Positions 1,350-57,854 of a DNA stretch of 57,854 bases are shown here, piece by piece. Under the pieces are notes generated by a model. That model was given only the letters and a program-made list of their open reading frames with translations, did not search any database and had not been told where the DNA came from. Both the position numbers and the translations under genes were made by a program. The DNA lies in contig JACPNL010000009.1 of the NCBI GenBank assembly GCA_016185505.1, positions 1 through 57,854 on the forward strand, written 5' to 3'. The number at the start of each line of letters is the position of its first letter. Position 1 is the first letter of the stretch. The DNA comes from Candidatus Yanofskybacteria bacterium (GTDB lineage Bacteria > Patescibacteriota > Minisyncoccia > 2-02-FULL-40-12 > GWA2-44-9).

Positions 1350-1551
1350 AAAATGTATCTACATAATACCAAATTTATTACTAAAATTCAACTATAAATT
1401 TTCTCTTTACAAATCAAACTAAAAAGCAAGCGATGCTTGCTTTTTAGTTATTTCTCAAAGCCGACGCTTCGGTTCTCGGAATGGGGCATCGCCCACTCCT
1501 GGGGAACTCTGTCGGCTCCCCGACCCTTTGGCGTCGGGGTTTCTCAATATC

Positions 1552-4167: not shown

Positions 4168-4540
4168 TCTGGACAGTCGTTAGTTCGTTAACCCCGACTC
4201 CGCCTAGGCGGGGCCACAACAAAGTCCTGCTTTCGGGTGGGCAAAGGAGACAATGTGGCCAAAACCACAGCTCCGACGCTTCCGGTCGGAGCCCCGACTG
4301 TCAACGTCGGGGTCGTCGCTACCCCAGGTACCATTCGGCACCTGGCTACGCTCGGGCCGAAAGTTCGGCTCGTGGTATTCAAGTTTTGGGTTCGGAGCGA
4401 ACTGGTGCCGGCCTGCATTCCCCGGCTGCCCATCAACAGGTCTGCTCAACACCAAGGGCGACTACGCATTCGTCGGCGCGAGAGTCGCCGGAGAAAAAAT
4501 CTCAACGAGATTCAAAAAGGGGAAGTCGGTTGACGTCAAG
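4168..4540 (+). ncRNA. GC-rich, heavily hairpinned ~370-nt leader / candidate ncRNA
   Basis: Consecutive stems are ccgc-ctag-gcgg, gtgg-ccaaaa-ccac, ctccgac-N6-gtcggag, ccccgac-N6-gtcgggg, ccaggt-N10-acctgg, cgggcc..ggctcg and ggcgac..gtcgcc. The in-frame translation here is W/R-rich and not protein-like. Confidence 0.4.
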
Positions 4541-5124: not shown

Positions 5125-5361
5125 GAAGGCAGAACATTAATACTAGGCGAGCAGAAAAGAGGTGACTTGAAGCCAATGTCGAAATGTCGATATATCGATA
5201 TTTTGGAGCCAAATCCCCTCTTTTCTGCAGTCCTGCTCCGTCTGGAAGCAGGCGGGGGAGGGGCCCGTCTCGTACGAAGTAGGACGCCCTAGGCGTCCGC
5301 AACTTCGTATCGGGATTCGTCAACCAACGTCAGTGCCCATTACGGGCGAAGGAGGCCAACC
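5125..5361 (+). promoter_or_regulatory. structured ~235-nt leader made of three long hairpins
   Basis: gcagaaaagagg (5151) pairs with cctcttttctgc (5217) around an atatcgatat core. cctgct..agcagg forms a second stem. acgaagt..acttcgt encloses ggacgcc-ctag-gcgtcc. The leader ends in the RBS gaaggagg (5348-5355). Confidence 0.5.
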
Positions 5362-6183
5362 ATGGCCAAGACCAAGAGCAGAGTGAAGAAGATGACGGCG
5401 ACAGAGGTTCCGTTTCCGACCAACGAGTTGTCGAACGTCGAGAAGGCGGACCTCGCGACGGCAACGGCCGCCGCCGAGACGACGACCAAGGACGGCGAGG
5501 CAAGCGATCGCTTGCCGTACCCCCCGCGAACCAAGGACGGCCAGGAAGCGTTCCTGGCGCTCGGGAAGTCCATCCCGAGCTGGCTCTGGGTCGCGCGAGC
5601 CCGAGCGCTCGGCCACTCGATGGCCGCGGACGAGGTGCGTGAGATCATCGCGTACGATGGACCGGAAGTGACCTGCACCGCGCCGAGCGGACAGTGCGCG
5701 TACCGGTTCCAGCCGGTGCGGATGGCCCACGTCGACCCCGCGACCGGGGCGCTCCAGACCGACGAGCGCGTCGTGTCGGAGTCGAACCCGGCCGGCATCG
5801 CGTACCGCGGCGCCTTCTTGGCGGTCCCTGTGGACCCCAAGAACCAGCACTCGAAGCTGCGGGTGCTCGGTCCGCTGTGTCAGCGTGACCAGCGTTCCCT
5901 CTCGGCGTCCTACAAGGATGCCGGGTGGTTCGTCAAGTCCTTCGGCAAGGCCGAGGCCGAGGCGTTCGTCGCGGCGACGAACGCCAAGAAGGATGCCGGA
6001 CGCGCGGCGTACCTCGCCCGCAAGGACGAGAACGCTCGGGCACTCGGCCTGGTGACCGAGGACGGGCAGCGCGTGGAAAGGGGCGGCGGACGGTTCCGCG
6101 GCAACCCCCACATGGCCACCGCCGGTCGTCAGGGTCGGCGGAACGCCGACCCGCGCGAGCGCAACATCGGGAACCGCGGCTAA
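5362..6183 (+). CDS. hypothetical protein, 273 aa, strikingly GC-rich (island cassette 2)
   Basis: AGGAGG RBS 7 nt upstream of the ATG. Third codon positions are almost all G/C in this frame. The C-terminus is Arg/Gly-rich. No family is recognised. Confidence 0.65.
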   Translation: MAKTKSRVKKMTATEVPFPTNELSNVEKADLATATAAAETTTKDGEASDRLPYPPRTKDGQEAFLALGKSIPSWLWVARARALGHSMAADEVREIIAYDGPEVTCTAPSGQCAYRFQPVRMAHVDPATGALQTDERVVSESNPAGIAYRGAFLAVPVDPKNQHSKLRVLGPLCQRDQRSLSASYKDAGWFVKSFGKAEAEAFVAATNAKKDAGRAAYLARKDENARALGLVTEDGQRVERGGGRFRGNPHMATAGRQGRRNADPRERNIGNRG

Positions 6184-6203
6184 CCCCGCGTTCCCGAGAG
6201 CAA

Positions 6204-6235
6204 CCCCTCACCTTTCGAGACCGAAAGGTGAGGGG
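6204..6235 (+). terminator. perfect 14-bp hairpin cccctcacctttcg-agac-cgaaaggtgagggg
   Basis: Read directly from the sequence. It is related to the hairpins at 7940 and 36651. Confidence 0.6.
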
Positions 6236-6241
6236 CACGTA

Positions 6242-6294
6242 CCCGGAAGGAGGGTGGAGGCACAACCTCCTCCCCTCCTCCGGGTCGTTTTTTT
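6242..6294 (+). terminator. Rho-independent-type terminator
   Basis: cccggaaggagggtggagg..cctcctcccctcctccggg stem followed by tcgttttttt. Confidence 0.7.
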
Positions 6295-6344
6295 AAGTAT
6301 TTGTTCAAGAGTTAAGAGTTCGTCAGAGAAGTTTTGTCCCCGAC

Positions 6345-6378
6345 CGAAATATAATAAGCATATGCTCATTATATTTCG
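6345..6378. promoter_or_regulatory. 34-nt near-perfect palindrome containing TATAAT on both strands (operator/promoter candidate)
   Basis: cgaaatataataagcat|atgctcattatatttcg with one mismatch, ~55 nt upstream of the GTG start at 6434. Confidence 0.4.
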
Positions 6379-6433
6379 ATGTAAGATTTTTCTGGTGAGT
6401 TCTTAAACAAAGCGTCAAAGGAGGGCGCTAAAC

Positions 6434-7912
6434 GTGAAAAGTGACAGGAACTGGTATCGCCAGCTTGGCGAGTACCGAAGAACGAAAGATGGACGAAAAA
6501 TCAGAGGCTTTATTGGCGCCACGATGCATTTGATCCGCCTTTGCGGAAAAAATATCGCCGTTGATTGCGGCATTGGATTCGATAAAAGTGATGAGATTCA
6601 GAAACAGTATGTGCCCGACGGCAACTGGCTGAACGGGACTCGTATTGATCTGATCATTCTCACCCATAAGCATTTGGATCACGTCGGCGCGCTTGTCCGA
6701 CTCGTGCATCATCATCCTGAAGCGCTGATTTTCATGTCAGCCAAGACATTTGAAGGCGCGCGTATCGCCATCGAGGACTCCCTGAATATCTGGCGTAAAG
6801 AAGCCGAGAACGCCCGGCGGAACGGCCTACCCATTCCCGAGCCGATCTTCACCGAGGAGATGGCTGACGCGTTCTATAACAATCCCAACCTGAAGGTGTT
6901 TGATGCACCCTACTGGCTTGACCCGCAGGAAGACCTGCGCGGACAGTGGCCGGGATGGGAGATGGGGTTCTACGATGCCGGCCACGATGTCGGTGCTGTA
7001 TCCACGTACATGCTTTTGCCGAATGGCAAGTATTTCTATCTGACCGGCGATGTAGCCAGTCACGATCAGGAAAACGCCCGTGGCGTGCTTCTGCCGCCGG
7101 ATAATTTTCTTGGCGACTTCTTTGACCGCCCAGGAACGATGGTTACCGAGGCAACCAACGGTGACCGCCGGATGGAAAAACCGCGCGAGCAGTTAGTCGA
7201 GGAAATTGGCCAATTTGCCAGAGAGGTTGATGCGAGAGGTGGCGTTCTTCTGGATGCCGTATTTGCCGGAACAAAAGCCGGCAACGACATGGTCATGTTC
7301 AACAACCTCGGCTACAAAGTTGTCGTTGACGGCCTTGCCCGCGATCATATCCGAGTTGAAGTGCCGGACATTGAGGAGCGGCTGAAGGACGGCCGAGTAT
7401 TCTTCATTGAAGAAGGTAAGAGTAAGGATAAGAAGGAGCTCGCCTGGAAACAGCGGGCCGAGTATGTGGCCGGTCTTCACGGCTTTGTACCCATCATCGC
7501 CCCTTCGGCGACGCTTGATCAGGGTTTCGCCGCATCGGCTTACGCGCCGGTGATACTTGAGGGCGAAAAGAATGCGGCGGTCTTCACTAGTCACATCTTT
7601 GACGATTCAACCACGCAAAGATTGTTCAACGTCAAGCGTGGCCGGACGATCAAGATGAAGAAGTTCGTCAACGGACGGCTCGAACCGATTCGAGTTAACG
7701 TCCGCTGTGACATTCGTCATTTTAACAGATCATCTCACGACTATCAGGACGGGCTGGTGGAGAGGGTTCGGCTCGCAAGGCCGGAGACGCTCATCGTCCA
7801 CCATTGCCCCGGCAAGGAATCGTTCAACGCCTTCGCCGAACGAGTGCATTCCCTGCCTCCCCCCCCGAAGAAACCGATCTGGGGACTGAATGGCAGAAAG
7901 ATATTCATCTAG
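6434..7912 (+). CDS. beta-CASP family metallo-beta-lactamase-fold nuclease (RNase J / CPSF73 / SNM1-like), 492 aa (island cassette 3)
   Basis: GTG start 8 nt after aaaggaggg. Motifs appear in order: THKHLDHVG (HxHxDH), DAGHDVG, LTGDVAS, VTEATNG (beta-CASP A), FTSHIF (B), LIVHHCPG (C). Confidence 0.75.
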   Translation: MKSDRNWYRQLGEYRRTKDGRKIRGFIGATMHLIRLCGKNIAVDCGIGFDKSDEIQKQYVPDGNWLNGTRIDLIILTHKHLDHVGALVRLVHHHPEALIFMSAKTFEGARIAIEDSLNIWRKEAENARRNGLPIPEPIFTEEMADAFYNNPNLKVFDAPYWLDPQEDLRGQWPGWEMGFYDAGHDVGAVSTYMLLPNGKYFYLTGDVASHDQENARGVLLPPDNFLGDFFDRPGTMVTEATNGDRRMEKPREQLVEEIGQFAREVDARGGVLLDAVFAGTKAGNDMVMFNNLGYKVVVDGLARDHIRVEVPDIEERLKDGRVFFIEEGKSKDKKELAWKQRAEYVAGLHGFVPIIAPSATLDQGFAASAYAPVILEGEKNAAVFTSHIFDDSTTQRLFNVKRGRTIKMKKFVNGRLEPIRVNVRCDIRHFNRSSHDYQDGLVERVRLARPETLIVHHCPGKESFNAFAERVHSLPPPPKKPIWGLNGRKIFI

Positions 7913-13510: not shown

Positions 13511-13518
13511 GTGGAATG

Positions 13519-13883
13519 TGCCGCGGGGGTGAATCGAACACCCAACGCCATCCTCTTCCAAGGATAAATTTGGACTATATCATCACCCCGTGATTGCGGA
13601 GCAATTTTACGGGGGGTCGGGCGCTTCGAACGTAAAGTAGAAAAACTACCACGTCCTACTCCCTTTCGGGATAGTCTCTACACCTGCCTACGCCAATGCT
13701 ACGGCAGGCAAGCCTTCCTCTTTTGTTTGAGAATAAGCTTGCTTGCAATCCGAAGCTTTAGCGAAGGATTGGCTCGGGATTGTCCTTGCGGAGTTTCCCC
13801 GAATTCACCCAATTTTTCAATCCGCCTTACGACGGAAAGCCCCAAAGATTTAGGGATGCGCTCTACCATTGAGCTACCGCGGC
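13519..13883 (-). tRNA. tRNA-Phe (anticodon GAA) interrupted in the anticodon loop by a group I intron
   Basis: 5' exon 13883-13852: GCCGCGG TA GCTC AATGGTA GAGC G CATCC CT. 3' exon 13558-13519: GAAGA GGATG GCGTT GGGTG TTCGATT CACCC CCGCGGC A. Joined, they give a canonical 72-nt cloverleaf. Confidence 0.8.
13559..13851 (-). ncRNA. group I intron (~293 nt, IC3-like)
   Basis: P1 hairpin CCCU^AA-AUCU-UUGGGG has a U.G pair at the splice site. R-like element GGUGUAGAGACUAU (plus-strand coordinates 13671-13687). S-like element GAUAUAGUCC (13567-13585). A terminal G lies just before the 3' exon. Confidence 0.8.
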
Positions 13884-15346: not shown

Positions 15347-15519
15347 TATAGCATAACCTGAAGAGTGTGGTAAATGGCTTGATAGGCCGTTTTTTAGTGT
15401 CCCGATTCTGTTTAACACGTGGTGTTAAGTACAGAATCGAGGATTCTCGATTTGTCCAATTTTTGGACAAATCGGAACCTAAAACGCCATTTTATCCTGT
15501 ACTTTATGGGGTTAAAACT

Positions 15520-16804: not shown

Positions 16805-17048
16805 AATTCTCTCCTCCTTCCTTTTCAATGAACTTAAAAAACTGTGCTATATGATAACACAATTTTTTGGTTACGTAAACTGTCCGCCCACCAAGCTAAG
16901 CTCGGCCCACACACCCTAAGATGGCCTACCCACCCCTGGAGAGGAACACCTTAGAACAGTTGGTTTTGAGGTAACAAGGGGGCATTGGTAATGTGCCGAG
17001 TTTGGTTTTAGTAGTTGAGGGTAATTAAAAAAACTGACGTCAGTCAGT

Positions 17049-17624
17049 TTAAGCCACCCACCACAGATGAGCTGTTATTTTCCATTCGTTGTTAATTTTT
17101 TCTACAACAAAGATTACAGCGTCGCTGGGAGCATTATTGAGAATAAACACAGACACATAACTACCTAGTGGCAAATCATTATTGGGTCGGTTGTTTTGGG
17201 TTAGAGGGAAAACTTGCTTCATTGCTTCTGCGGCGCTTTGCCAGTTAACTTTATTTGTTAAGCTACTTGGATTAGGTGGCAGGTTTATATAATCTGGCTC
17301 ATTTGGGTCACCATGGCCATACATTTCCACTTGTTCATGATCGCTGAATAGCCACATAGTTAAAACTTTTCTTAACCAAATATTACTATCAAAGGAGGGG
17401 CTATTAACAGAAAAAATCTTTCTTGTGTTGCTATCTAACTTACCATTATCAAAATACTCTACGGCCTTATCAATATCTTGTTCAACTAACCAGGAATATA
17501 AAAAATCATCAAAAAGTTTTGTAACTTTCTGAAGCTCTTGAGTATTTGTTTGTGGCTGTGCAGAAACGTTAAAAGCAAGTAGAGAAACTCCTAACGCCAC
17601 AAAAAGAACATTGATTTTCATCAT
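17049..17624 (-). CDS. hypothetical secreted protein, 191 aa
   Basis: Signal peptide MMKINVLFVALGVSLLAFNVSAQ. AAGGAG RBS and a TTGCCT-17-TATAAG promoter lie upstream. Confidence 0.55.
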   Translation of the reverse strand: MMKINVLFVALGVSLLAFNVSAQPQTNTQELQKVTKLFDDFLYSWLVEQDIDKAVEYFDNGKLDSNTRKIFSVNSPSFDSNIWLRKVLTMWLFSDHEQVEMYGHGDPNEPDYINLPPNPSSLTNKVNWQSAAEAMKQVFPLTQNNRPNNDLPLGSYVSVFILNNAPSDAVIFVVEKINNEWKITAHLWWVA

Positions 17625-17898
17625 TTTAACTCCTTGAGTTGTAAAAGCATCCTCTTGTCTTATACACTATCGCCAACAAAAAGGCAAGGTGTTCCCCTCC
17701 AGAGGCGGGCAGGCATAATCCTAAAAAGCGTAACCTGTCCTGAGCGTAGTTGAAGGATTAAAATAACCCTGACTACCAACCAAAATACAACGTCAGACGT
17801 TGTATTTTGGGGAAAAGAAATATAATGCGCTGGCAAGTCAGACTTGCCTCGCTTAAACGCTAGTTCCCAACTTCCCAACGGAACCGAGTTTGACTCGG

Positions 17899-18155
17899 TC
17901 CGCCCACCAGGGCTCGAACCTGGGACAAGCTGATTAAGAGTCAGCTGTCCCGATTTTTGTTTACAAAAATCGAGGATCCTCGATAACTTAGTCCGCCCCC
18001 CGCGACTCGAACGCGGAACATTCACCTTAAGAGGGTGCTGCTCTACCAATTGAGCTAGGGGCGGACTAAATTATCGGGACTCTACCAAAGCCGACGCTCG
18101 CAACACAAGGTCGGCTCCCCGACAGCAAATCTCGTCGGGGCTGAGCTATGGGCGG
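17899..18155 (-). pseudogene. tRNA-Lys(CUU) gene interrupted by two insertions (D loop, and D stem position 24/25)
   Basis: Removing 18090-18140 and 17944-18085 leaves CCGCCCA TA GCTC AGTTTGGTA GAGC A GCTGA CTCTTAA TCAGC TTGTC CCAGG TTCGAGC CCTGG TGGGCGG A, which is a canonical cloverleaf. Confidence 0.6.
17992..18064 (-). tRNA. tRNA-Lys (anticodon CUU), nested inside the interrupted tRNA-Lys
   Basis: CCGCCCC/GGGGCGG, GCTC-AATTGGTA-GAGC, GCACC-CTCTTAA-GGTGA (one G/A mismatch), CCGCG-TTCGAGT-CGCGG. Leader and trailer extend the acceptor helix by ~12 bp. Confidence 0.75.
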
Positions 18156-18181
18156 ATATTTAAAATTATTTTCAAAAATTG

Positions 18182-18253
18182 CGTCCCCGGAGGGAATCGA
18201 ACCCCCATCAGCAGATTCGAAGTCTGCTGCTTTATCCGTTAAGCTACGGGGAC
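18182..18253 (-). tRNA. tRNA-Arg (anticodon UCG)
   Basis: GTCCCCG/CGGGGAC, GCAGA-CTTCGAA-TCTGC, GGGGG-TTCGATT-CCCTC. Confidence 0.85.
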
Positions 18254-18684
18254 ATTTTCTCAATACTCTTAGACCATCCGAACTTTTTAGCCGTTTTCTT
18301 TCTGTGACAATTAGCACACCTTACGTCACACTTCTTTATCTCTTCCTTAATTTTCAATAGCGGATAGTGTCCGACTAAACCAGCCACCTCTTTAAACTTG
18401 TTATCCTTGTGATCAAATTCCAAGACAATAATATCTGACTCACCACAATCTATACATGAATGTTTTTGTAAGTATTCTTTAATATAACTTCGCGCTTCCA
18501 ATCTTTGCCCGGTATTTCTTCTTTTTGCTTTTATTAAATAATATTCTTTGTTTCTCTGATAATGACTCCTTACAAAAGCCCGGGTGCATTCTCTGCATTG
18601 ATATTGCCTCAATCCAATATTTTTTACTCTGAAATTAAACTCATTGGGGGACTTCTCTTTCTTACATTTTGTACATATTTTCAT
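18244..18684 (-). CDS. HNH endonuclease / zinc-ribbon protein
   Basis: CTKC..CREC, CIDCG..LEFDHKDNK..CANCHRKKT. The 3' end overlaps the tRNA-Arg 5' end by 10 nt. Confidence 0.7.
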   Translation of the reverse strand: MKICTKCKKEKSPNEFNFRVKNIGLRQYQCRECTRAFVRSHYQRNKEYYLIKAKRRNTGQRLEARSYIKEYLQKHSCIDCGESDIIVLEFDHKDNKFKEVAGLVGHYPLLKIKEEIKKCDVRCANCHRKKTAKKFGWSKSIEKMSP

Positions 18685-18745
18685 TACATAAGTATATCAT
18701 GATAGTCCTCGAACATCAATTAAAATTCCGAAGCCGGTACTATGT

Positions 18746-22436: not shown

Positions 22437-23873
22437 TTACTTTTCGTCTTTATTGTCGTCTGTCTCTGTCCGAGTACTGTCCGCGTCTGTCTGCGTTATT
22501 TCAGTAAATCCGACCTTTTCCTTCGGCGACCTGACATCTATCTTCCATCCGGTAAGTTTGGCCGCGAGGCGGACATTTTGTCCCCTCTTGCCTATGGCCA
22601 GCGAGAACTGGTCGTCAGAGACCTCAACAAGGACATGCCTTCTGTTTTCATCTAAGACCTTGACTTCAAGAATTTTGGCGGGAGAAAAAGAATTAGCTAT
22701 GAATTCCGCCACCTTTTCGCTCCACAAGATTATATCTATCTTTTCGCCGGCCAGCTCGTTTATGACCGTCTGTACTCTAACGCCTTTCTGCCCGACAAGA
22801 GAACCGATCGGGTCAACTCCACTCTCCTTTGAGACAACGGCTATTTTAGTTCGTGAACCGGCTTCTCTGGCAACAGCTTTGACCTCGACAGCTCCGCTAT
22901 CTATCTCGGGAACTTCCATCATAAACAACCCATAAACCAGATCCGGATGAGATCTTGACAAGACCACTACCGGGCCCCTAGACGTCTCATCAACCTTCAA
23001 TATCAAAAACCTCAACCGCGAACCAATCCTGTAGTTCTCTCCGGGTACTTGCTCCGCAGTTGTAAGTATCCCATTCGTTTTGCCAATATCAATAAAAACG
23101 AGAGGTCCTTCTTTTCTTTGAATAATACCGCTGACTATTTCGCCTTCCTTTTTCTTAAATTCTTCAAATATAGCATTCCTTTCGGCCTCCCTTAACCGCT
23201 GTATAACGACCTGTTTGGCCGTTTGAGCGGCAATGCGCCCAAAGTCAGTATGGGTCTCAAGTTCGGTAATAAGCTCGTCACCGATCTTTATCTTCTTCTT
23301 AATCTTTTTGGCGTCATCGAGAAGGATATGTTTTTCGGGGTTAAATTTAACTTCCCCCGTGCCGATATCGTCCCGACTCTGTCGAGGATCCTCGATGGCT
23401 TTGCCATCGGGACCTTCCGTTGAATCATGTCCCCCTTGCCCCCGCGGCTTAACGTGCCTATCAACCCCGTTAGAAGTAGCCGTGCCACGGTCCTCCGGAC
23501 TCGCGACTTTGTCGCGAGCGCGACTTCTAACGGGGTCAACTTCGCCTGCCTGCCCGCCTGCGCGGACAGGCGCAGGCAGGGTAGCGGGACGCTCGGCAAA
23601 ATCAGGTTTTTCTTCAACCAGTTTTAACGGCAACTCTCCGGTTAAGTTGCCCTCTTCATCAACGCTTTCAACCACATAGTGAACCTGGGAGATCTTTATG
23701 TCTCCCGTCTCCGGGTCAAGCTTGGCTCTGACTATTTGGCCCTTTTTGCCGTAGTCCCTCTTGTAAGCAGCCGCAATGGCCGCTTCAACGGTCTCCAAAA
23801 CGCTCTGTTCAGGTATTCCCTTCTCTTCGGCAATCTGCTTTATCGCTAGTAAGAATTCTTTTATATCCAACAT
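22437..23873 (-). CDS. nusA: transcription termination/antitermination factor NusA with a ~80-aa in-frame insertion
   Basis: N-terminal domain, S1 and two KH regions are recognisable. The segment ERPATLPAPVRAGGQAGEVDPVRSRARDKVASPEDRGTATSNGV.. is encoded by GC-rich palindromic elements. Confidence 0.9.
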   Translation of the reverse strand: MLDIKEFLLAIKQIAEEKGIPEQSVLETVEAAIAAAYKRDYGKKGQIVRAKLDPETGDIKISQVHYVVESVDEEGNLTGELPLKLVEEKPDFAERPATLPAPVRAGGQAGEVDPVRSRARDKVASPEDRGTATSNGVDRHVKPRGQGGHDSTEGPDGKAIEDPRQSRDDIGTGEVKFNPEKHILLDDAKKIKKKIKIGDELITELETHTDFGRIAAQTAKQVVIQRLREAERNAIFEEFKKKEGEIVSGIIQRKEGPLVFIDIGKTNGILTTAEQVPGENYRIGSRLRFLILKVDETSRGPVVVLSRSHPDLVYGLFMMEVPEIDSGAVEVKAVAREAGSRTKIAVVSKESGVDPIGSLVGQKGVRVQTVINELAGEKIDIILWSEKVAEFIANSFSPAKILEVKVLDENRRHVLVEVSDDQFSLAIGKRGQNVRLAAKLTGWKIDVRSPKEKVGFTEITQTDADSTRTETDDNKDEK

Positions 23874-37489: not shown

Positions 37490-37668
37490 TTATACTAATT
37501 AACCTAATTATTCTAATCAAATCCCAATGTCTAATTACGAAATGCTTAAAACGTTTTAGACATTAGTCGTTAGGTTATTGGGATTTATTTAGGTCAACTC
37601 CGACGCTTGCGGTCGGAGAGCCGACTGATAACGTCGGCTTTAGAGCAATTAGAATAATTAGAAATTAA
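37478..37668. repeat. AT-rich long hairpin (aattaacctaatt family) with a GC double-hairpin element nested at 37598-37638
   Basis: The left arm encodes the last rnpA codons and its stop. The right arm is interrupted by ctccgac..gtcggag + agccgac..gtcggc. Confidence 0.75.
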
Positions 37669-56387: not shown

Positions 56388-57854
56388 TTAGACATAGTAT
56401 TTCTTCATTCTTGCTTCCTCCTCTTTTTTCTGGGCTTCTTCTATTTTTTTCAGTGACTCTCTCAATTCCTCCGGCGTTTTTTTATCTAATTCGTGGGTTC
56501 TTTGTCTTAAGTACTCTTTCTTATTTCTTGTTGGGTCGTTCAGTACTTCAGCAAGGAGGTAATTTAATATAAGGCCGATTTTTGGTCCAGGTTTAATGCT
56601 CAATTCTTTCATCAGTTCATCGCCGTTAATTTGGAGCATTTTAACGGAAATTGGGTCGTGGGAAACCTTGTCTATAATATATTTCATGTGACGCAGTTTG
56701 TACGGTACTGCTTTTGGTCTTCCTGAGCCAATCCGGTCCGCTTCGCGAACTTTTATCAGGTCTTCCATATTATCTTTGCCGACGTTCGCCATAAGCCGTC
56801 TGACCGATGATTCGGTTACTTCCCCGACGTTATAGAAAAACATATGATAGCGGACTAATTTTACCACTTGCTCCGTGATGTCTTTGGGAAATTTCAGCCG
56901 TTCCATAATTTGGGCAACCATTTTGGCGCCGATTACCTCGTGACCGTAAAAAGTTGAATGCAATCCCTCGCCCCTCTTGGAGCGCGGCTTGCCGATATCG
57001 TGGAAAAGAGCCGCAAGACGGACTTCCAGAGAATATTTTTTATCCGCGGCATACTTTAAAGCTCGGGCGCAATGTTCCCACACGGTATAGATGTGATGCA
57101 GGTTTTGTTCTACGCCGATACCTTCGTGCATTTCCGGAACCACGTATTGTAAAAGGCCGGTTTCTTCAAGCAGCAGCACTCCCTCATAGGCGCTGTCGGA
57201 TTCGATGATCTTAATAAACTCGTCCCTTATCCTCTCCTTTGATATGATCCTGATCCATTCGGCATTCTCTTTTACCGCGGCCAGCGTCTTTTCCTCGATA
57301 TTAAAACCTAAAACAGTTGCAAAGCGAATAGCGCGTAATAACCGAAGAGCGTCTTCGTTAAATCTTTCCTTGGGATTGCCTACAGTTCGGATAACTTTTT
57401 TGTTCAGGTCTTTTTGTCCGTCAAATAGGTCTATTAGTGTAAAATTCGAAGCACGAATATCGAAATTCGAGACAATATCTAAATCAGGATTTTTAAATTC
57501 TAAACGTTTTGAATTTTTAGAATTAGTGTTTTGAATTTGTTTCGTATTTCGTATTTCGTATTTCGGATTTATGCTCAATGCCATTGCATTGATTGTGAAA
57601 TCACGTCTGGAGAGGTCATCTTCCAGCTTTTCGGCAAATTTTATTTCATCAGGATGCCTTTTGTCCGTGTACTTGCCCTCAATCCGATACGGCGTTACTT
57701 CTACTACCGCCAAGGTCGAATTTTTTGAACCGGTCTTAATTCCCACTGTTCCAAAGGTATTTTCATACGTTGCATCATAGTCAGCCCCGACGCTGTCGGT
57801 CGGGATCCTGACCTCGCCTTGCGAGCGTCGGGAGAAAATCTTCTGTATCTCTTC
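56388..57854 (-). CDS. cca: CCA-adding tRNA nucleotidyltransferase with HD domain (N-terminus beyond right edge)
   Basis: DFTINAMAL, RFNEDALRLLRAIRFA, LFHDIGKP. The frame stays open upstream of the track start through to 57854. It carries two in-frame repeat insertions. Confidence 0.85.
   Translation of the reverse strand, partial: EEIQKIFSRRSQGEVRIPTDSVGADYDATYENTFGTVGIKTGSKNSTLAVVEVTPYRIEGKYTDKRHPDEIKFAEKLEDDLSRRDFTINAMALSINPKYEIRNTKQIQNTNSKNSKRLEFKNPDLDIVSNFDIRASNFTLIDLFDGQKDLNKKVIRTVGNPKERFNEDALRLLRAIRFATVLGFNIEEKTLAAVKENAEWIRIISKERIRDEFIKIIESDSAYEGVLLLEETGLLQYVVPEMHEGIGVEQNLHHIYTVWEHCARALKYAADKKYSLEVRLAALFHDIGKPRSKRGEGLHSTFYGHEVIGAKMVAQIMERLKFPKDITEQVVKLVRYHMFFYNVGEVTESSVRRLMANVGKDNMEDLIKVREADRIGSGRPKAVPYKLRHMKYIIDKVSHDPISVKMLQINGDELMKELSIKPGPKIGLILNYLLAEVLNDPTRNKKEYLRQRTHELDKKTPEELRESLKKIEEAQKKEEEARMKKYYV

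Follow-up and report, generated by a model that had tools for sequence, protein, structure and literature searches.

The sequence analyzed in this work (the window) is a stretch of 57,854 nucleotides of contig JACPNL010000009.1 of Candidatus Yanofskybacteria (GenBank assembly GCA_016185505.1). On its minus strand (18155..17899) it contains a tRNA-Lys(CUU) gene that is divided into three pieces by two inserts, the larger of which carries a second, complete tRNA-Lys(CUU). It is probable that the outer gene is dead and has been replaced by the inner tRNA, which is borne on a palindromic miniature element equipped with a terminator. As the same design was identified in unrelated genomes of the Candidate Phyla Radiation (CPR), the arrangement suggests a self-compensating mobile element that has not previously been described.

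Structure of the interrupted tRNA-Lys gene

The region is comprised of five parts, namely the three pieces of the outer gene and the two inserts between them, with the second insert containing further features of its own:

18141..18155, minus strand: outer tRNA-Lys piece 1, CCGCCCATAGCTCAG (acceptor 5' strand, U8-A9, 5' strand of the D stem, start of the D loop)
18090..18140, minus strand: insert 1, a 51-nt double hairpin in the outer D loop, family 1 (from parsing, fold and alignment A1)
18080..18089, minus strand: outer tRNA-Lys piece 2, TTTGGTAGAG (remainder of the D loop and three of the four 3' bases of the D stem)
17948..18079, minus strand: insert 2, a 132-nt family-2 palindromic element between G24 and C25 of the outer gene (from parsing and framework)
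17992..18064, minus strand: inner complete tRNA-Lys(CUU) (ARAGORN Lys(ctt); Rfam RF00005, 60.3 bits against a gathering score of 29)
17969..17984, minus strand: central palindrome ATCGAGGATCCTCGAT followed by TTTTT, terminator-like by score, just past the inner tRNA
17948..17976, minus strand: second hairpin of insert 2, TCCTCGATTTTTGT-aa-ACAAAAATCGGGA, with an empty loop, the mirror of the tRNA-bearing stem framework (from framework comparison)
17899..17947, minus strand: outer tRNA-Lys piece 3, CAGCTGACTCTTAATCAGC...TGGGCGGA (last base of the D stem, anticodon arm with CUU, variable loop, T arm, acceptor 3' strand, discriminator A)

Piece 3 reads in full CAGCTGACTCTTAATCAGCTTGTCCCAGGTTCGAGCCCTGGTGGGCGGA and on its own gives a partial nhmmer match to positions 22-74 of the tRNA-Lys profile (E = 1.2e-11). 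On removal of both inserts in silico the outer pieces abut exactly (tRNA positions 1-24 and 25-73 at the site of insert 2) and ARAGORN calls a 74-nt tRNA-Lys(ctt), while no outer gene is called by this program when just one of the inserts is removed. This bears out the initial annotation, made from the sequence alone, in which a tRNA-Lys(CUU) interrupted twice and canonical after in silico removal of the interruptions had been described, together with a second complete tRNA-Lys(CUU) nested within it (recovered here by both ARAGORN and RF00005) and a 51-nt double hairpin in the D loop at 18090-18140 (recovered by sequence parsing). The presence of the second insert was likewise upheld but not its extent; it had been given as 142 nt at 17944-18085, a range which took in 6 nt of piece 2 and 4 nt of piece 3, and is corrected to 132 nt (18079-17948).

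From positions 8 to 65 the joined outer gene is the same as the tRNA-Lys(CUU) of Reyranella, except for one extra T in the D loop, and this match to a real tRNA identifies it as a genuine tRNA gene in pieces and not a chance cloverleaf. A scan of genome contigs with the outer 3' half gave matches solely to alphaproteobacterial (Reyranella) tRNA-Lys and recovered no relatives; at the level of its letters, the body of the outer gene shows generic conserved Lys sequence. The predicted fold of the 276-nt region has an energy of -136.6 kcal/mol (z = -9.65).

Insert 1 is composed of the hairpin CCCCGAC-x-GTCGGGG followed by AGCCGAC-y-GTCGGCT. Insert 2 is also built from two hairpins, which have the same base and stand in mirror orientation, its framework being TCCCGAT, the stem with the tRNA, and ATCGAGGA, followed by TCCTCGAT, the second hairpin and ATCGGGA. 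The terminal inverted repeats TCCCGAT/ATCGGGA, which had been proposed to form a closing helix, do so in the predicted fold as a perfect helix of 7 bp, and the G and C bordering the insert may be part of an 8-bp terminal inverted repeat. The whole inner tRNA constitutes the 'loop' of the first hairpin. Its acceptor stem is lengthened by complementary leader and trailer, as was also anticipated (about 12 bp had been claimed); the extension consists of 10 bp of leader and trailer plus a framework stem of 7-8 bp (inverted repeat I2: 19 nt, 95%). Both of the small palindromes noted earlier in this insert were found.

The inner tRNA has a canonical bacterial cloverleaf with the anticodon CUU and discriminator A73, and is presumed to be the functional Lys gene. 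Its single G27·A43 mismatch is also present in an identical free-standing gene on a Wildermuthbacteria contig (L136). Differences between the inner and outer tRNA-Lys occur all along the anticodon and T stems, the longest common run being approximately 13 nt. Given these differences and the identity to the L136 gene, the inner gene is not a local duplicate.

Comparison with syntenic relatives

The contig is an ordinary segment of a bacterial chromosome (dnaA, dnaN, yidC, ruvABC, tyrS, ftsH, nusA, tig, a penicillin-binding protein gene, uvrD, and cca). Its cysteine desulfurase is 74-76% identical to proteins of Candidatus Yanofskybacteria, and the contig thus belongs to Patescibacteria (CPR). 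Four groups of the retrieved loci (L numbers) are syntenic with the window, namely L152-155, L156-159 (Yanofskybacteria), L136 (Wildermuthbacteria), and L069. The gene order T2SSE, nusA, tig, doxX, cysteine desulfurase, promoter, tRNA-Arg(UCG), short spacer, and tRNA-Lys(CUU) is conserved across the four groups, and in all of them a single uninterrupted tRNA-Lys lies directly past tRNA-Arg. Insert 1 and insert 2 are absent from all four, as is an HNH endonuclease open reading frame (ORF) found at the locus in the window.

Piece 1 of the outer gene starts exactly at the tRNA-Lys start of the relatives, after a 25-nt spacer past tRNA-Arg, and the outer gene agrees with the tRNA-Lys of L156 (Yanofskybacteria) in every base of the variable loop and T arm. 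The outer gene is therefore the resident gene and the interruptions are lineage-specific, which is how we read the outcome of the comparison with relatives that had been suggested at the outset. The locus is a mosaic, with a tRNA-Arg like that of L069, a spacer like that of L136, an outer T arm like that of L156, and an inner gene 100% identical to the free-standing tRNA-Lys of L136.

Some further observations were made on the tRNA genes of these genomes. The tRNA-Lys(CUU) of these CPR lineages starts C1-G72, C2-G71 (CCGCCC.../...GGGCGG; alignment A4). Its anticodon and T stems vary strongly between syntenic genomes; tRNA-Arg is nearly invariant within sub-lineages. The tRNA-Arg of the window differs from that of most relatives and was considered as a foreign gene, a possibility that was rejected because L069 has the same type natively.

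Repeat families of the two inserts

The initial annotation had suggested a search for other copies of the second insert. Neither insert had a further copy when 3 or fewer mismatches were allowed; framework-related members of a family were found on the contig, and both of the families described here surfaced only through hairpin-framework searches. The repeat nature of the 51-nt insert had not been part of that annotation.

The hairpin core of family 1 (CCGAC-N5-20-GTCGG) occurs 10 times on the contig compared with 0.33 expected, and five paired-hairpin copies are present on the 58 kb, these being insert 1 and four others (alignment A1). Matches to the family-2 framework number eight, counted by strand, against 0.28 in resampled sequence, giving three elements on the contig (insert 2, 15400-15477, and 23371-23412). 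Besides the two inserts, the members are:

1459..1539, plus strand: family-1 element, 81 nt, with a long first loop (framework search, alignment A1)
4271..4312, plus strand: family-1 element, 42 nt (framework search, alignment A1)
37598..37639, plus strand: family-1 element, 42 nt, in the dnaA upstream region (framework search, alignment A1)
57785..57834, plus strand: family-1 element closest in sequence to insert 1, in an open frame within the CCA-adding enzyme gene (alignment A1, frame analysis)
15400..15477, plus strand: second family-2 element, 78 nt, without a tRNA (repeats D4, D5, I3, I7)
23371..23412, minus strand: third family-2 element, 42 nt, in frame within the nusA ORF (framework search)

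In family 2 the framework is constant, yet the interiors are wholly different and still self-complementary (AATTTAGT/ACTAAGTT, TCTGT/ACAGA, and GGC/GCC). The ATCGAGGATCCTCGAT motif of insert 2 is found again at 15436-15451 and 23381-23396, and the left flank of the 15400 element, TTTTTTAGTG, is similar to the D arm of the outer gene (TTTGGTAGAG; repeat I7). The family-1 copy at 1459-1539 is bordered by TTTCTCAA on both sides, which may be coincidence. In silico removal of the other family-1 copies uncovered no hidden tRNAs, family 1 was not found in the relatives, and no Rfam family matches either insert. As in miniature inverted-repeat transposable elements (MITEs), repetitive extragenic palindromic (REP) sequences and Rickettsia palindromic elements (RPEs), there are several related dispersed copies with terminal inverted repeats, a size of 42-132 nt and no ORF.

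Two of the copies lie inside protein genes. NusA has approximately 55 extra residues in its N-terminal linker compared with four relatives; the extra DNA (23348-23597, minus strand, within nusA 22437-23873) is an in-frame stack of GC-rich palindromes that includes the 42-nt family-2 element and resembles RPE-type 'protein-coding palindromes'. The copy at 57785-57834 lies in the head domain of the CCA-adding enzyme, where it encodes roughly SRRSQGEVRIPTDSVGA (the gene runs from 56388 to beyond 57854, minus strand). Delimited by their framework, seven of the eight elements have lengths that are multiples of 3 (42, 42, 42, 51, 78, 81, and 132 nt), which is not so for the single hairpins; this may reflect the survival of in-frame copies or the way in which the elements are made. 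As judged by their reading frames, the repeats appear to persist as translated DNA insertions. Elements that are removed from RNA need not keep frames, and so the copies elsewhere on the contig, in frame in nusA and the CCA-enzyme gene, indicate that the inserts are DNA insertions and not spliced introns. Paired-hairpin repeats in these two genes also suggest an RPE-like phenomenon in Patescibacteria.

Recurrence of the nested design in other CPR genomes

The same design was found in a second organism, which is represented by L074 and L046 (99.98% identical) among at least 120 metagenome loci retrieved by a tRNA-Lys 3'-half pattern, with L161 (99.9%) being a third, independent assembly. This organism has no synteny with the window, and the nearest named relative of the adjacent histidine kinase is from Sungbacteria, with 42% identity. 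The order at this locus is TCCGCCCATAGC, a hairpin insert and TCAATTGACAGAG; then TCCCGAT-TCTGTG, a tRNA-Lys and CACAGA-ATCGAGGATCCTCAAT...AAAAATCGGGA; and then CAGCTCCCTCTTAATAAG with a CCCCGAC..GTCGGGG hairpin. The element itself is bounded by AGAG/TCCCGAT on one side and ATCGGGA/CAGCTCCCTCTTAA on the other. Its framework and both junctions (GAG/TCCCGAT and ATCGGGA/CAGC) are the same as in the window, and the nested tRNA-Lys is 91% identical to the inner gene of the window. The stem holding the tRNA is changed on both sides in a fully compensatory manner, and recurs as the inner stem (TCTGT/ACAGA) of the tRNA-less 15400 element. In L074 the outer gene is decayed, having lost its T arm.

A further contig, L142, begins inside an inner tRNA-Lys and continues with CACAGA-ATCGAGGATC.., followed across the junction by CAGCTCTCCTCTT, with a remnant of the outer 3' end approximately 330 nt further on. 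The same insertion point in unrelated genomes implies that the element is either site-specific or spread by recombination via the conserved tRNA flanks.

Proposed origin of the nested gene

In the reading that we favor, a resident tRNA-Lys(CUU) would have been struck by two members of small paired-hairpin repeat families scattered in the genome. The larger insert, at G24/C25, would be a passenger cassette consisting of a tRNA-Lys(CUU) that lacks a promoter and sits on a stem of about 17 bp, followed by a hairpin and T-run terminator. It would be transcribed from the resident promoter along with the HNH ORF and tRNA-Arg, and the inner tRNA would be freed by RNase P and RNase Z, perhaps with RNase III acting on the long stem, with transcription largely ending ahead of the outer 3' piece. 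The outer gene would thereby be a pseudogene, its role having passed to the passenger, and the 51-nt family-1 hairpin pair in the D loop would be a second insertion, either neutral or earlier.

Three readings had been offered initially with no preference among them, of which a mobile insertion that brings its own replacement is supported by the uninterrupted genes of the relatives, the repeat families and the recurrence in other genomes. Duplication debris does not agree with the differences along the anticodon and T stems, and a processed precursor is dealt with below.

Several points weigh against replacement by a mobile cassette. There is no target-site duplication beside insert 1 or insert 2, deletion restoring the outer gene exactly, and no transposase, integrase or other mobilizing gene was found by Pfam among the approximately 45 scanned ORFs of the 58-kb window. 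The outer gene is perfect apart from the inserts, which fits a recent event and equally fits selection on a spliced product. The tRNA-bearing framework was seen in at least three genomes among the matches listed, a thin sampling of its frequency and independence. Finally, the junctions in the window come from a single assembly, independent Logan contigs covering only the stretch that runs downstream from 17926/17927.

Neighboring insertions and a possible role of nucleases and recombinases

The remaining features of the locus are as follows:

18691..18719, minus strand: promoter-like site TTGATG-17-TGnTATACT (sequence scoring)
18244..18684, minus strand: free-standing HNH endonuclease ORF, between the promoter and tRNA-Arg (PHROG 2255 'HNH endonuclease', E = 2.6e-32)
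18181..18253, minus strand: tRNA-Arg(UCG), directly upstream (96% identical to the tRNA-Arg of L069)
16882..17714, minus strand: extra DNA 3' of the outer gene (repeats D1, I1)

At the place of the promoter-like site the relatives have TTGAAA..TGGTATAAT, and by its sequence this site is the likely start of an HNH / tRNA-Arg / tRNA-Lys transcript, tRNA-Arg probably being co-transcribed with tRNA-Lys. No homolog of the HNH ORF is present in any of the retrieved metagenome loci, and neither this ORF nor the cysteine desulfurase (TTG start) has an exact protein record.

The DNA beyond the outer gene includes a unit of 0.8 kb (16924-17714) whose 29-bp inverted ends mimic the T arm and acceptor of tRNA-Lys, antisense near the tRNA and sense at the far end. 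It encloses an orphan ORF of 191 aa (17049-17624), which matched only itself in a homology search. A 12-nt copy of the outer 3' end, TGGTGGGCGGAC, is located at 16882-16893. The extra DNA is lacking 3' of tRNA-Lys in L069, and a similar right end (CTGTTCYAAGGTGTTCC..GGGCGGACAG) occurs approximately 560 nt past the tRNA-Lys of L152.

In the closest relative, L150, a large serine recombinase gene (Resolvase, Recombinase and Zn_ribbon_recom domains; 5297-6674) lies directly beside the tRNA-Arg/tRNA-Lys locus, and homologs are found beside tRNA-Lys in the CPR contigs L032, L039, L065, L067, L075, and L123. Many assemblies end at this locus. With its HNH ORF, 1.8 kb of extra DNA 3' of the gene and serine recombinases in other CPR contigs, the locus is, by its gene content, a hot spot, and the HNH endonuclease and large serine recombinases are candidate helpers of insertion.

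A nuclease or recombinase acting at the tRNA-Lys gene might accordingly have made the nested state itself, either by HNH homing or as a serine-recombinase island that has shrunk to 132 nt, with the cassette being copied via the tRNA flanks. We regard this as rather unlikely. It would account for an HNH ORF that is unique to this genome and lies approximately 90 nt upstream of the outer gene, for the recombinase directly past the locus in L150 and its homologs by tRNA-Lys in six other contigs, and for a mosaic locus at which many contigs end; serine recombinases moreover insert cleanly without repeats. However, no HNH or recombinase gene occurs near the nested copies in the available sequence of L046/L074/L161 and L142, and the tRNA-less framework in nusA and at an intergenic site is better explained by a dispersed repeat than by one att site. 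The junctions also lack the common central dinucleotide expected of serine-recombinase sites, for which reason an att-site model was rejected as the direct mechanism of insert 2. A phage origin was not supported either, phage BLAST and scans of viral contigs having given generic tRNA matches or nothing.

Splicing and assembly as explanations

At 13518-13883 (minus strand) the window also contains a tRNA-Phe(GAA) whose anticodon loop holds a 293-nt group I intron (RF00028, 68.1 bits, 13549-13861), found by ARAGORN in intron mode only. To our knowledge, Phe is not among the classical intron-bearing tRNAs of bacteria (Leu-UAA, fMet, Arg-CCU, Ile-CAU). RF00028, by which the P3-P8 catalytic core of such introns is recognized, matches only at 13549-13861, with nothing at 17899-18155 even at E <= 1.

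It is conceivable that both inserts of the tRNA-Lys gene are introns or excised intervening sequences, with a functional outer tRNA and one precursor giving rise to two tRNA-Lys(CUU). The flawless outer gene left by their removal would agree with this, as would the compact and highly structured form of inserts whose ends close into helices, the true group I intron 4 kb away, and the short ORF-less insertions common in CPR rRNA genes, some of which are thought to be cut by RNase III (PMC11270868). We nevertheless judge it very unlikely. No bulge-helix-bulge, with its two 3-nt bulges on either side of a 4-bp helix, is predicted at the junctions, the ends of insert 1 pairing within its own hairpins and those of insert 2 forming an unbroken helix continuous with the D stem in the modeled fold. 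There is no Rfam match to an intron or ribozyme, and neither insert is large enough to be a group I or group II intron. The reading frames of nusA and the CCA-enzyme gene stay open across the sister copies, whose lengths are multiples of 3, the inserts are absent from relatives, and the outer gene is decayed in L074 and L142. A terminator-like hairpin stands between the inner tRNA and the outer 3' piece, and excision without ligation would leave a middle fragment of 10 nt. A weaker point is that no splicing endonuclease (EndA-type) or RtcB ligase/RNA ligase was found among the approximately 45 Pfam-scanned ORFs of the 58-kb window. The processed precursor of the initial annotation was set aside on the structural grounds, which include the lack of group I features, together with the in-frame copies and the decay of the outer gene elsewhere.

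An assembly or binning artefact, in which tRNA-Lys reads of two organisms were joined into a chimera, is hardly credible even for a metagenome contig with tRNA sequences common to different organisms and with three Logan contigs breaking in the outer T arm at 17926/17927 (a 30-mer shared with other CPR tRNA-Lys), since the four junctions lie outside the sequence common to the inner and outer genes, both inserts have repeat-family relatives on the same contig, and three independent assemblies of another organism contain the nested design. Strain polymorphism was rejected as the cause of the Logan breaks, the shared 30-mer being sufficient to break a de Bruijn graph.

A possible class of tRNA cassettes and other tRNA-linked sequences

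Replacement of the resident tRNA-Lys by an element-borne copy could be one case of a wider phenomenon. We put forward, tentatively and as less probable than replacement at this locus, a CPR class of self-compensating palindromic cassettes in which a promoter-less tRNA on a long stem enters a fixed site of a cognate tRNA gene, takes over its promoter and kills the resident, so that tRNAs are rapidly replaced by horizontal transfer. The insertions would apparently be of Lys into Lys at G24/C25 and of Pro into Pro in the anticodon loop, and targeting may be by the sequence of the passenger tRNA or by the conserved tRNA flanks.

At about 10230-10450 of L074 (minus strand; also L046 and L161) a tRNA-Pro(CGG) on a 14-bp leader/trailer stem is flanked by what seem to be fragments of another tRNA-Pro, its 5' 29 nt on one side and its 3' part on the other. 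This case rests on manual parsing, and single deletions in ARAGORN do not rebuild the outer gene. In L086 (3560-3800; also L035) a tRNA-like 5' fragment, GCCCCCATAGCTCAAC, precedes a tRNA-Thr(CGU) that is held on a stem of 15 bp, with no outer gene recovered by ARAGORN single deletions.

Other tRNA-linked sequences were observed among the CPR-like metagenome loci. The last 15 nt of approximately 30 non-redundant tRNA genes (Leu, Cys, Lys, Trp, Tyr, Arg) are repeated 90-210 nt downstream of the gene, with at most one mismatch over the 15 nt and a match that often extends further. In the intervening DNA the T arm is copied in antisense, and there is also a structured, conserved core, of which two types occur, alpha (GAAAGNCGGAG..GAGGCGGGGTCGCG..GTGACCG in L133, L127, L078, L113, L137, and L039) and beta (GAAAAGGTTGCC..GCGACAACCTGTACTGAA..GTAAG in L066, L114, L135, L040, L104, L109, L143, L146, and L056). 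No Rfam family matches these sequences, which might represent integrative elements of miniature size or else a kind of tRNA-linked element that has not been described. Upstream of intact tRNA-Lys genes, by 50-130 nt, L030, L031, L056, L071, L137, L039, and L067/L075 have copies of the first 15-21 nt of tRNA-Lys or, alternatively, acceptor-stem 'minihelices' (e.g. CCCGCCCG-taagcagagcttt-CGGGCGGG). Some of these fragments, which are probably remnants of earlier tRNA-Lys replacements, are accompanied by a common motif, CGNCATGAAA..TTTCGCGNCGCTCCTCA.

If true, replacement by such elements would explain both the strong divergence of tRNA-Lys between related genomes at one conserved CPR locus and the commonness of tRNA fragments around CPR tRNA genes. 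Standard tRNA finders report the inner gene only, and interrupted outer genes and tRNA turnover in CPR are overlooked as a result; assemblies also tend to break at such loci.

Comparison with known systems

The statement made with the initial annotation, that no bacterial tRNA within a tRNA has been described, is consistent with a search of the full-text literature, which found none. Neither this literature nor PMC11270868 yielded a case in which a palindromic miniature element bearing an entire tRNA lies inside the cognate tRNA gene. The single traits are of known kinds, namely tRNA genes as targets, compensation by an element-borne tRNA, palindromic miniature repeats and in-frame 'coding palindromes'.

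RPEs, REP/REPIN sequences and Correia elements are palindromic miniature repeats of bacteria. RPEs are mentioned in PMC1166351 and PMC1458961. The repeats of the window resemble all three in being short ORF-less hairpins dispersed in a small genome, both intergenic and in frame in essential genes, and they resemble REP doublets in that their hairpins are paired in opposite orientation. They differ in having a framework of 7-8 nt per arm, hypervariable self-complementary interiors and no target duplication, and in that one member carries a whole tRNA and terminator in a hairpin loop inside a cognate tRNA gene. A tRNA passenger is not known to us from any RPE, REP or Correia element.

Prophages, integrative and conjugative elements and genomic islands use tRNA genes as integration sites and repair them by bringing a copy of the segment that they displace. 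Insert 2 shares with these the tRNA gene as target, the supply of the missing tRNA function by the element, and a hot spot with recombinases in relatives. Classical integrative elements, however, supply a 3' segment only and leave a direct repeat. With insert 2 the gene is broken in the D stem, the element supplies an entire tRNA, and its ends have no direct repeat of a tRNA 3' segment (attL/attR); the separate unit of 1 kb located 3' of the gene does have one (repeat D1). It is also a unit of 132 nt without an ORF and hence without an integrase, and the old gene is left in two dead pieces.

More than one interruption at unusual positions, including the D arm, is also seen in the multi-intron or split tRNAs of archaea and red algae (PMC4090602, PMC3728597, and PMC3241643). 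Such introns are characterized by a bulge-helix-bulge and excised by EndA together with a ligase, whereas the window is from a bacterium, has no such motif and has sister elements within protein genes. In CPR rRNA genes, short (<200 bp) uncharacterized ORF-less insertions have been described (PMC11270868), and these are alike in the group of organisms and in being short inserts in structural RNA genes; unlike the inserts of the window, they have no reported passenger gene, the text of PMC11270868 containing no mention of tRNA.

Group I introns in bacterial tRNA genes, with their mobility by homing endonucleases (PMC3984707), offer a further parallel. In both cases a conserved RNA gene receives a selfish insertion that has no phenotypic effect; in the window an HNH endonuclease gene is adjacent to the locus, and tRNA-Phe has a true group I intron. 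For the tRNA-Lys gene, neutrality would come from a spare gene and not from self-splicing, and the inserts are far too small, have no group I structure and lie in the D arm instead of the anticodon loop. If true, the nested tRNA-Lys would thus represent a third route to a harmless selfish insertion, beside self-splicing introns and integrases with a partial tRNA copy, in which the element carries a whole spare gene that is expressed from the promoter of its victim.

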